DNA of 39,283 bases from Patescibacteria group bacterium (GTDB lineage Bacteria; Patescibacteriota; Gracilibacteria; UBA1369; UBA12463), in the NCBI GenBank assembly GCA_038062935.1, contig JBBTWG010000023.1, positions 1-39,283 of the forward strand. The letters are read 5' to 3'. Shown in pieces: positions 19,313-20,310 of this stretch. Position 1 is the stretch's first letter. Each line of letters starts with the position of its first letter. Position numbers and translations under genes: made by a program. The notes under the pieces are model-generated. The model was not told the DNA's origin. It saw nothing but the letters and a program-made list of their open reading frames with translations, and made no database searches.

Positions 19313-20310
19313 TCAATTGAGAAACTGATGCTCTAATTCTTCATAAATGAGCCAATGAAAAGCTTTGTGGTTTTTCTTGTTTGAATGCTTCAGCAACATG
19401 CCGCGGTAGCTCGCGATGTTGGTAGGACTGAGTCTTTTTTTGATGCGTGCCTGATTTCTTTTGTTTAATTTCCTACCTGATGGCCAGAGTATGACACCCA
19501 GAAATCTGAGGCCGTGTTTTGCTTTGGGTATTTTGTCGCTCTTTGGATTTATGTTGAGCTTGAGCTGTTCTTGTAAGAAAGCGGCGGCTTGGGTGCGAAA
19601 GGATTTCAACTTTCCTCCATCTGTTTCGATGAGAATAAAATCATCGCCGTATCGAAGATAAGCTTTTGGTTTGAGGATATGCTTCACGAAACGATCGAAT
19701 TCGTTGAGATAGATGTTTGCGAAGATTTGGCTCGTGAGATTTCCGATTGGCATTCCACGCACGCCGCTACTCTCTCTCTCTCTCTCTCTCTCTCTCTCTC
19801 AAAACTGAAAACGATTTTTTTGAGCAGATTCATGGTTTTTTCGTCTTTGATTTTTCGTGCAAGAATCTGAAGCAGGACGTTTTGATTCACGCTGTCGAAA
19901 AATTTTCTCACGTCTCCTTTCCAGATATGGCTCTGCGGATAGGATTTCAGAAATTGCTGTGTTCTTTTGATACAGCCGAGTAAACCTTTTCCGGTGCGAC
20001 ATGACCAGGCATCGTATATAAATGTCTTGTCATAGAGCTTTGTGAGCAAATCATAAATGACGCGATGCACTATGCGATCACGAATATGGGCGACTGAAAC
20101 CTCTCTTTTCTTGTTGTCAGCGACGATGAATTTTTTATAAGATCCATGCTGATATTTCCCTGAATTCAAATCTTCAAAAAGCTCCGCAATATTCTCTTCC
20201 AAATGATATTGAAATTCATGCAATTCTCGGGAATACTTCTTGCCTTTGCGAAAGGCAAACCAGCTTTTCCAGATATTCCCTAAACTCAGATCTATGGATT
20301 CACTTCCCAT
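19313..20310 (-). pseudogene. DGR-type reverse transcriptase, split by a frameshift at a (GA)15 tract (possibly phase-variable rather than dead)
   Basis: N-terminal frame has K.RE..V..IRDRIVH, SCRTGKG and KGDVRKFFDSV; C-terminal frame has GMPIGNLTSQIFAN, RYGDDF and FLG. The frames switch exactly at the repeat; a restored protein would be about 331 aa. Confidence 0.9.
19771..19800. repeat. (TC)15 / (GA)15 dinucleotide microsatellite inside the RT gene
   Basis: 30-nt perfect repeat; encodes ERERERERER in the upstream frame. Confidence 0.98.

Follow-up and report, generated by a model that had tools for sequence, protein, structure and literature searches.

The DGR cassette and the repeat in its reverse transcriptase gene

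The window, meaning the whole stretch of DNA that was analysed (39,283 nt), holds a DGR cassette made up of a reverse transcriptase (RT) gene, an avd accessory gene, a template repeat (TR) and a target gene that ends in a variable repeat (VR) (Table 1). The RT gene is assembled as two ORFs on the reverse strand, 19684..20316 (210 aa) and 19313..19762 (149 aa), and because the two halves match successive stretches of RVT_1, they are read as one gene that is cut at a repeat tract. RTs of the DGR clade are marked by a motif 4 of the form (I/L)GxxxSQ and by a YxDD catalytic motif, and both are found in the C-terminal part, which reads SSGVR-GMPIGNLTSQ (motif 4) and, further on, RYGDD, and which is open to its own stop. 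The best solved relative, with the homologue P0112 as query, is the DGR RT 8ub7 (E 3.8e-31).

Table 1. Features of the DGR cassette, with positions counted from the first letter of the window.
Feature	Position	Strand	Remarks
RT C-terminal part	19313..19769	-	-1 frame relative to N-terminal part; RVT_1 positions 117-205
Repeat tract G(AG)15	19770..19800	-	Perfect, 31 nt; (CT)15C on + strand; in RT loop just before motif 4
RT N-terminal part	19801..20310	-	From ATG at 20310 to tract, 170 codons; RVT_1 positions 7-115
avd accessory gene	20303..20638	+	Adjoins RT gene, divergent; NF033474, bAvd PF22296
Template repeat (TR)	20658..20756	-	Direct repeat of 99 nt; 85% identity with VR
DGR target gene	21041..21907	-	288 aa; C-terminus carries VR
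Variable repeat (VR)	21065..21163	-	3' end of target gene

The original prediction, made from the sequence of the window, held that TR, VR and avd look intact, and this is upheld by the 99-nt repeat pair, in which each of the 15 mismatches coincides with a TR adenine when the coding strand is read (T on the + strand), and by the match of avd to NF033474 (E 6e-14), although at 52 bits this match lies under the curated cut-off of 80 bits, as does the match to bAvd PF22296 (E 3.5e-7) under its own. The target protein has no match in Pfam or NCBIfam.

The tract comprises 15.5 copies at 100% match according to TRF, in agreement with the perfect (GA)15 repeat that had been proposed. As assembled, with n=15 units, the 210-aa ORF runs into an out-of-frame tail after ...SFERERERERER and reads on to a stop at 19684, whereas the 149-aa ORF, which contains RYGDD, starts with MRGMPIGNLTSQ. 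An uninterrupted RT frame is therefore absent, the frame being lost before motif 4. Computed translation yields a 331-aa RT with motif 4 and YGDD at n=14, a product of 208 aa lacking both at n=15, an immediate TAG at n=16 (181 aa) and a 333-aa RT at n=17, exactly the outcomes that had been predicted for these four lengths. No further stop is present in either half, so that the tract is, as also predicted, the sole lesion of the gene. The tract is thus a long, perfect intragenic repeat whose length sets the RT frame, as in a contingency locus. It had been described as the only long dinucleotide tract of the window, and this holds for the whole genome, in which the next-longest dinucleotide runs are of 5 units (six such runs across all 59 contigs, 1,018,961 nt). 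No MutS_V or MutL domain was detected in this genome, which is 93.6% complete.

The same locus in other sequencing runs

Thirteen runs from five studies are listed as holding the locus, with no RNA run among those listed, and the comparison of four of them (X1-X4) was made on Logan k=31 contigs, not on reads. The contigs end inside the tract in all four runs and the interval 19762-19808 is bridged by none of them; the left contigs continue for 35, 35, 35 and 31 letters beyond 19761 and the right contigs for 34, 36, 34 and 31 letters before 19809, and no single allele-length model fits these stub lengths. As the contigs of all four runs break in the tract, the assembled n=15 is possibly one unit off. 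This, together with a depth of only ~8-13x in the runs holding the locus and the general tendency of dinucleotide repeats to stutter in PCR-based libraries, is what might be expected if the out-of-frame state were an assembly or library artefact, with a true main length that is in frame (n=14, for example) and n=15 arising as an error of the consensus where stutter is likely. However, the out-of-frame state recurs in 66 repeat-bearing loci from many assemblies (see below), including tracts of just 10-16 nt in which such errors are rare, and even a majority of n=14 would leave the tract prone to switching, changing the current state and not the mechanism. An artefact is considered very unlikely.

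Plain inactivation would be another way to account for the broken RT, the gene being a recent pseudogene, disrupted by a microsatellite that expanded where the loop tolerates it, and the DGR at this locus being dead. The search for an ON allele (with the RT in frame) of the window RT was negative: its best homologue other than itself is 69% identical, and those in the genomes of 60 relatives are at most 65% identical. Dead DGRs are also common, over half of the candidates having been dropped for premature stops or truncations in the study by Wu et al. (2018; PMC5758913). Against this, the contigs of run X4, which comes from a different study, have no listed difference from the window over 18902-21084, spanning RT, avd and TR, and all 16 of the 16 listed differences between the two VRs (contigs, not reads) are at TR-adenine positions. 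Rewriting of VR at these sites between two populations whose RT, avd and TR are without listed difference indicates that the element worked recently. A second DGR RT, which is intact, 38% identical and without an SSR, is encoded on contig C36 and could in principle have rewritten the window VR in trans. That the tract is the only lesion in the RT gene likewise argues against a pseudogene, as do the related genes discussed below, and plain inactivation is regarded as scarcely probable.

Repeats in related RT genes

Motif 4 is missing in 55 of the 120 best homologues of the N-terminal half, and 43 of these 55, compared with 8 of the 65 in-frame homologues, show a signature of repeats in the form of (ER)n, (HT)n, (SL)n or G3+. 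For a survey at the DNA level, 160 loci were picked on the C-terminal half, of which 130 were unique with both of two RT surface loops, located by HMM anchors, assessable. A long SSR lies in one of these loops at 80 of the 130 loci, so that the check proposed with the original prediction, a search for repeats in the same loop of homologues, is positive for that loop or the second one. The units seen are GA, AC, TC, poly-G and AGCA, and they form at least five classes of site and unit, among them GA, AC, TC and poly-G before motif 4 and AC before motif 3. Of the counts, just the number of these distinct classes is relied on; the 22 gains and losses on the FastTree RT tree were set aside, as 45 of its 125 inner branches have a support below 80%. 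Perfect tracts persist through deep subclades, with several units and at two sites, which argues against plain inactivation.

Of the SSR-bearing loci, 66 are OFF (out of frame) and 14 ON, and of those with no SSR, 5 are OFF and 45 ON, giving 71 out-of-frame RT loci among the 130 and an association of SSR with the OFF state at p = 8.5e-17 (Fisher's test, on loci that are not phylogenetically independent). Some loci in frame at the first loop have interrupted N-terminal halves; genetic code 25 was considered as the cause and rejected, with just three suspect loci, the true cause being the second repeat site. The RT tract is the sole match to (AC)10 in the genomes of five out of five relatives. 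An additional GA tract in one genome (G007) lies outside any RT and outside any ORF of at least 60 aa.

The loop before motif 4 is ~5 residues long in the solved RT 8ub7 and 27 in P0112, and in a structure model that is confident elsewhere it is the part of low confidence. At two loci, L069 and L148, the frame is kept with tracts of 32 and 44 nt. The RT loop thus tolerates changes in length. Among near-identical pairs of SSR-bearing loci (at least 99.6% identity), tract length differs in 4 out of 4, and the cleanest ON/OFF pair, L079 and L080, is one GA unit apart with no other difference over 4703 nt. In both members of this pair a TAG stands in place of an invariant Trp codon, and the pair shows that the tract is unstable, not that a switch is working.

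If the OFF genes were decaying, additional lesions might be expected to accumulate in them, and extra stops do occur in some relatives (9 of 130 loci). These are, however, no commoner in OFF genes, with additional in-frame stops in 5 of 66 OFF loci with an SSR versus 4 of 64 others, and the median dN/dS of the C-terminal half is 0.147 for 24 OFF-OFF pairs against 0.109 for 19 ON-ON pairs with no SSR. In the s1:AC clade, in which every sampled member is OFF, the corresponding values are 0.06-0.12. TR/VR pairs with A-type mismatches are found at 40 of 66 OFF loci with an SSR, 11 of 14 ON loci with an SSR and 28 of 45 ON loci with no SSR. As judged from sequence, the OFF RT genes appear otherwise intact, with a downstream half under purifying selection, and are apparently not decaying. 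This is indirect evidence that the RT gene may have been kept functional over time despite its OFF states.

The ON share of the SSR-bearing loci (14/80) is under the one third expected from random phase (binomial p = 0.002), which also fits a leaky OFF frame, in which the frame of the DNA matters little and RNA-polymerase slippage or ribosomal frameshift suppression yields some in-frame RT at any tract length. The tract would then be an attenuator that sets a low and noisy level of RT, not a heritable switch, although the two can coexist with one another. Besides the excess of OFF states (66/80 versus two thirds expected), this reading gains from the strong purifying selection on the downstream half even in all-OFF clades such as s1:AC and from the rewriting of VR in a lineage assembled as OFF, and there is a precedent in the mod gene of Mycoplasma bovis, for which a 2026 preprint reports low-level, frame-dependent expression of frameshifted (AG)n constructs in E. 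coli (10.64898/2026.04.01.715767).

Leaky decoding does, on the other hand, sit poorly with the distribution of frames, since, under the thresholds applied in that count, the 68 SSR loci at the first site comprise 29 with offset 2, 25 with offset 1 and 14 with offset 0 (in frame), so that both wrong frames are about equally common and no single programmed direction is apparent. The RNA around the window tract folds no better than its shuffles (z = +1.02; 168 of 200 shuffles at least as good), and near-identical loci do differ in the length of the tract in their DNA. Programmed frameshifting and transcriptional slippage, as in dnaX and IS elements, resemble the RT gene in having a repeat in an ORF whose downstream portion lies in a different frame, and a full-length product that is made only when the frame changes. 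The RT loci differ from these systems in that units and lengths vary, and neither a conserved direction of shift (29/25/14) nor, at the window tract, a stimulatory RNA element was found. A leaky frame is the main rival of the switch proposed below and is regarded as unlikely, if less so than inactivation or artefact.

A proposed phase switch of hypermutation

The reading preferred here is that (GA)15 is a slipped-strand ON/OFF frame switch in the RT of a chromosomal DGR, to which we assign a probability of about two in three. At n=15, translation would leave the RT frame before motif 4 and give a 208-aa product lacking motifs 4-7 and YGDD, so that no cDNA would be made and VR would be frozen. 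If the tract lost one unit (n=14) or gained two (n=17), an RT of 331 or 333 aa would be restored and mutagenic retrohoming from TR to VR would resume. With a dinucleotide repeat, the ON state would lie one unit from every OFF frame, and slippage should be uncorrected and frequent given that neither MutS nor MutL is detectable. We infer that lengths switch within populations at the window locus and that OFF cells are truly without RT activity. The contingency locus put forward in the original prediction, which named slippage or frameshifting as an alternative, gains support from the repeats in homologues, the intact halves of OFF genes, the differing lengths in all four near-identical pairs and the rewriting of VR.

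The presence of similar unstable repeats in most of the related RTs suggests, at the level of sequence, that hypermutation may be switched by repeat slippage in these bacteria, the same device, with varied units and in two surface loops, apparently being kept across a large CPR/Patescibacteria DGR clade that is mostly assembled as OFF. It seems fairly probable that targeted hypermutation is phase-variable in this clade as a whole, with repeats repeatedly installed by selection in two tolerant RT loops (at least five site/unit combinations) and kept perfect through speciation, most cells being locked OFF and rare one-unit slips leading to bursts of target diversification, and with the tract as the sole long dinucleotide repeat in genomes of ~1 Mb without mismatch repair.

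Among natural systems, targeted hypermutation of proteins is known only from DGRs. If the proposal is correct, the RT switch would be a heritable, reversible and stochastic control of their activity, and a way for a cell to keep a good variant once it is found. It would also account for the inactive appearance of many environmental DGRs and for the many "broken" RTs discarded in surveys, such as that of Wu et al. (2018) cited above. As 66 of the 130 loci are both SSR-bearing and split, and 71 are out of frame, pipelines that look for an intact RT ORF undercount the DGRs of this clade, and estimates of DGR activity should be stratified by tract phase.

SSR contingency loci are known from Haemophilus, Neisseria and Helicobacter, and with these, for example the (AG)n tracts of Type III mod genes, the RT tract shares a perfect intragenic repeat with a unit that is not a multiple of three, a length that toggles the frame and differs between near-identical loci, and a switched enzyme with downstream, population-wide consequences. 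The present case differs in that a DGR mutator is switched and not a surface or restriction-modification gene, that the genome has just this one long dinucleotide tract and not a set, that the tract is located mid-gene in a loop of the catalytic domain, and that the host is a free-living groundwater CPR bacterium and not a host-adapted pathogen. Switchable general mutators, in which mutS or mutL is controlled by a repeat or a prophage and which act genome-wide via mismatch repair, follow the same logic of a mutation supply that is itself heritably and reversibly switched, whereas here a single targeted hypermutation cassette would be gated. Hypermutable repeats for bet-hedging outside the classical pathogens have also been described as contingency loci in genes of T-even phages (PMC12633550), the gene concerned here being instead the RT of a retroelement.

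No earlier description of a DGR regulated by an intragenic repeat was found in the literature searched, and look-ups of terms in the article text of PMC8144416, PMC11661182, PMC5758913 and PMC6642488 turned up neither repeats nor phase variation in connection with the RT genes of DGRs. With canonical DGRs (Bordetella phage BPP-1 type; solved RT 8ub7), the present element shares motif 4, YxDD, Avd and an adenine-specific TR/VR pair at the 3' end of the target. It departs from them in the repeat that interrupts the RT frame, placed in the very loop that is so short in 8ub7, and in the divergent orientation of avd.

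A reverse transcriptase gene divided at a dinucleotide tract

In a profile search, positions 7-115 of the Pfam domain RVT_1 matched one ORF and positions 117-205 a second, so the two are a single DGR reverse transcriptase (RT) gene cut at a (GA)15 tract. When the number of repeat units (n) was varied by script, with only product lengths as output, n=14 gave a product of 331 aa that includes both motif 4 and YGDD, n=15 gave one of 208 aa that lacks them, n=16 met a TAG at once (181 aa) and n=17 gave 333 aa, which agrees exactly with the arithmetic of the original prediction. At n=15 the RT would be switched OFF, and the ON state, in which the reading frame is restored, would lie one repeat unit away. 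The assembly may be in error by one unit at this locus, something that would leave the mechanism unchanged.

The second-longest dinucleotide runs in the genome (59 contigs, 1,018,961 nt) have just 5 units, so the tract is no chance feature, and the earlier observation that it is the only long dinucleotide tract extends from the window to the genome. RNA around the tract folded no better than shuffles (z = +1.02). Other tandem repeats in the window lie at 650-724, 24120-24291, 26465-26525, 32986-33019 and 16869-16899; among them are CCTGTT, present in 12.5 copies, and a 42-nt unit in 3.4 copies (97% match). A heptamer resembling AGGATT(T/G) forms several short arrays and is found again on many of the genome's contigs.

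The other cassette components are in place, as originally described, and each of the 15 TR/VR mismatches falls at a coding-strand adenine of the TR.

Features of the DGR cassette in the window
Feature	Position	Strand	Description
Tract	19770-19800	coding strand minus	+ strand (CT)15 then C; minus strand G(AG)15; perfect, 31 nt
RT N-terminal ORF	19684..20316	-	210 aa; homology up to ...KKIVFSF, then ERERERERER and out-of-frame tail
RT C-terminal ORF	19313..19762	-	149 aa; first residues MRGMPIGNLTSQ; includes RYGDD
avd (accessory gene)		divergent orientation	NF033474, E 6e-14, below curated cut-off
TR (template repeat)	20658-20756		
VR (variable repeat)	21065-21163		3' end of 288-aa ORF

Repeats in the loops of related RT loci

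A query with the N-terminal half of the RT returned 354 protein matches at E <= 1e-5, and the best 120 of these were analysed. Apart from the window's own protein (100%) they are 54-69% identical, and their named sources are Peregrinibacteria and Patescibacteria group. Motif 4 is in frame in 65 of the 120, mostly of 313-360 aa, and absent in 55, of 163-216 aa, nearly all of which end at or just past the same loop. A loop repeat signature, being (ER)n from GA/AG, (HT)n from CA/AC, (SL)n from CT/TC, or G3 or more, was present in 43/55 broken vs 8/65 intact proteins of this set. Both shifts occur among the out-of-frame tails: ...CQSEIS and ...CPLGI are examples that place the RT frame at -1, ...YWYAYWKS and ...YRNADRQP examples that place it at +1. 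Some broken homologues stop immediately. Among solved structures the closest is the RT 8ub7 (E 3.8e-31 for the homologue P0112), in which the linker from the helix ahead of the loop to motif 4 has about 5 residues vs 27 in P0112. In an AlphaFold2 model of P0112 the mean pLDDT is 86 and the 10-residue block means fall to 57, 53 and 67 around the repeat-encoded stretch; this modelled stretch fits a tolerated surface insertion.

At the DNA level, 160 loci were picked on the C-terminal half to counter query bias, 80 of them from species-representative genomes and 80 from JGI metagenome contigs. HMM anchors (the helix before the loop, and motif 4) located the loop in 150; the N-side anchor was missing in the other 10, mostly because the match lay at the very start of the locus. 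Dropping 11 duplicates and one misplaced anchor left 138 unique loci, with both loops, that before motif 4 (site 1) and an upstream one before motif 3 (site 2), assessable in 130. Homologues do carry repeats in these loops: with thresholds of at least 10 nt for dinucleotides, 8 for homopolymers and 16 for tetranucleotides, 80 of the 130 loci have a long repeat in one loop, never in both, and 66 of these are out of frame or stopped (OFF) and 14 in frame. Among the 50 loci without a long repeat, 5 are out of frame or stopped, 3 of them with short repeat remnants, and 45 are in frame. The association of repeat and broken frame gives a Fisher p of 8.5e-17, which overstates the evidence because the loci are related.

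At site 1 the units, counted under thresholds other than those of the 130-locus count, are AG/GA (42), G (10), AC/CA (8), A (3), TC (3), T (1) and AGCA (1), and the frame offset in the same set is 2 in 29 loci, 1 in 25 and 0 in 14. Compound (CT)n(GA)n tracts occur at L132, L152 and L160, and in L076 AGCA is repeated about 9 times, over 37 nt and in frame. Short GC-rich inverted repeats flank the GA tract in L042/L122, L149 and L154, such that it would occupy a hairpin loop; these flanks are absent at the window's locus.

Site 2 was found on tracing the short upstream frames of some genes that are in frame at site 1. It lies between ...GAIERTxxFLK and W(K/R)xD..KFFDSVD, 160-280 nt upstream of the motif-4 loop, and its repeats, within one subclade, are (AC)n of 10-63 nt and, once, (TC)19 (L003, L004, L006, L007, L009, L012, L014, L016, L017, L022, L025, L026, L038, L081, L089, L094, L096 and L139). 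Of the assessable dinucleotide cases, 13/16 are out of frame. In most of these loci the AC tract is directly followed by a motif of some 17 nt of conserved DNA, the ends of which could base-pair into a small hairpin. The two genes that are in frame read this motif in separate frames (REAIFR in L004, AKPFF in L012), so its conservation looks to be at the nucleotide level.

Long dinucleotide tracts are rare elsewhere. Across the fetched DNA (about 651 kb), 25 of at least 10 nt were counted outside loops, 19 of them being the site-2 tracts. Matches to (AC)10 were confined to the RT tract in all five genomes with AC-type tracts, and matches to (GA)8 in two genomes; in a fourth the phase of the (GA)8 pattern misses AG-phased tracts. 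A third genome, G007, has one extra GA tract of 26 nt (L161, contig C21, 9242-9267), outside RTs and ORFs of at least 60 aa, which may be another repeat-controlled locus. Given the weak support of the FastTree tree, repeat diversity was judged solely by the number of distinct site/unit classes, and five have at least 3 loci each (site-1 GA, AC, G and TC; site-2 AC). In this weakly supported tree the window's RT is the lone GA-type member of a 36-row clade otherwise of AC and G type, suggesting that its tract probably arose separately.

Tract length and a proposed frame switch

In four pairs, repeat-bearing loci share 99.6% identity or more across 1.9-4.7 kb, and tract length differs within every one of these pairs: L042/L122 (10 vs 16 nt), L069/L148 (32 vs 44 nt, both in frame), L087/L147 (14 vs 16 nt, in two different OFF frames) and L079/L080 (29 nt, OFF, vs 27 nt, in frame). 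One GA unit is the sole difference between L079 and L080 over 4703 nt. In both, however, an invariant Trp codon, the first of the N anchor, is replaced by TAG, so this pair is evidence of instability and not of a working switch. The loops of the two near-identical pairs without repeats are identical. The MutS_V (PF00488) and MutL (PF01119) domains had no match in the window's genome (93.6% complete), while matches were found in 11 of 14 control genomes. The window's genome therefore seems to lack mismatch repair, and slippage products would then stay uncorrected.

The contingency locus originally proposed is kept as the best explanation: the tract would switch the frame of the DGR RT by slipped-strand mispairing, as a member of a clade-wide selected design. 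The in-frame share of repeat loci is below the 1/3 expected for random phase (binomial p = 0.002). This excess of OFF states, together with a 2026 preprint on (AG)n tracts (10.64898/2026.04.01.715767), suggests the main rival, that OFF frames are decoded leakily and the tract tunes the level of RT instead of switching it. Leaky decoding and slipped-strand switching are compatible.

Both phase variation through repeats and DGRs are already familiar. As the original prediction supposed, full-text literature searches and the main text of DGR surveys turned up no description of repeats, or of phase variation, within the RT genes of DGRs. One survey set aside over half of its candidate DGRs because of truncations or premature stops (PMC5758913), a practice that would hide a pattern of repeat-split RTs.

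Upkeep of interrupted genes and rewriting of the VR

Plain decay of the RT gene is unlikely, as OFF genes keep open halves and low dN/dS, and as the VR has been rewritten between otherwise identical populations. Among 56 loci OFF at site 1, 49 have an N-part open for at least 165 codons (it is interrupted in 5 and contig-limited in 2) and 54 have a C-part open for at least 130. In-frame stops in conserved segments occur in 9/130 loci (OFF-repeat loci 5/66, remaining loci 4/64). Median C-half dN/dS (Nei-Gojobori, own frame) is 0.147 between OFF loci (maximum 0.24; 24 pairs, dS 0.05-1.5) and 0.109 between ON loci without repeats (19 pairs), and it is 0.06-0.12 in the AC clade, in which all sampled members are OFF. 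These low values indicate that, for most of the lineages' history, the part past the frameshift was translated in the RT frame. TR/VR pairs in which one base, A or T, accounts for at least 85% of mismatches occur in 40/66 OFF-repeat, 11/14 ON-repeat and 28/45 ON no-repeat loci, with median mismatches of 19, 19 and 20, respectively. L052 and L071, with otherwise intact RTs, have an in-frame TAG at a conserved position (N-anchor codon 28); this and the TAG of L079 and L080 could be nonsense mutations or reassigned TAG.

The stretch was detected in three groundwater runs of one study, from which the DNA may have come, and in a drinking-water run of another, X4 (0.84 of words), all represented by Logan k=31 contigs. 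These end within the tract in 4/4 runs, with no bridging contig. The X4 contig over 19809-21083 (RT N-part, avd and TR) has no differences from the window, and none is listed from 18902 to 21084, whereas the VR contig has 16 listed between 21085 and 21156. All 16 fall at TR adenines, with X4 carrying the TR base at 7 and the window at the rest, so the two VRs seem to have been copied separately from one TR, with mutagenesis at its adenines. As the VR differs in otherwise identical cassettes, the DGR retrohomed after the two populations split, despite an RT assembled out of frame.

A caveat is that a second DGR RT of the same genome (contig C36, 1-1500), which is intact, has no repeat and is 38% identical to the window's RT, could act on the window's DGR in trans. 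It has its own divergent avd; neither a TR/VR pair nor any sequence similar to the window's TR was detected on this 7.5-kb contig.

Beside the DGR, X4 has 24 listed differences within 250 nt (18652-18901), all transitions, in the 3' part of a Fic-domain ORF (18469..19104, minus strand), with the adjoining RT, avd and TR free of differences; this patch could be recombined or fast-evolving.
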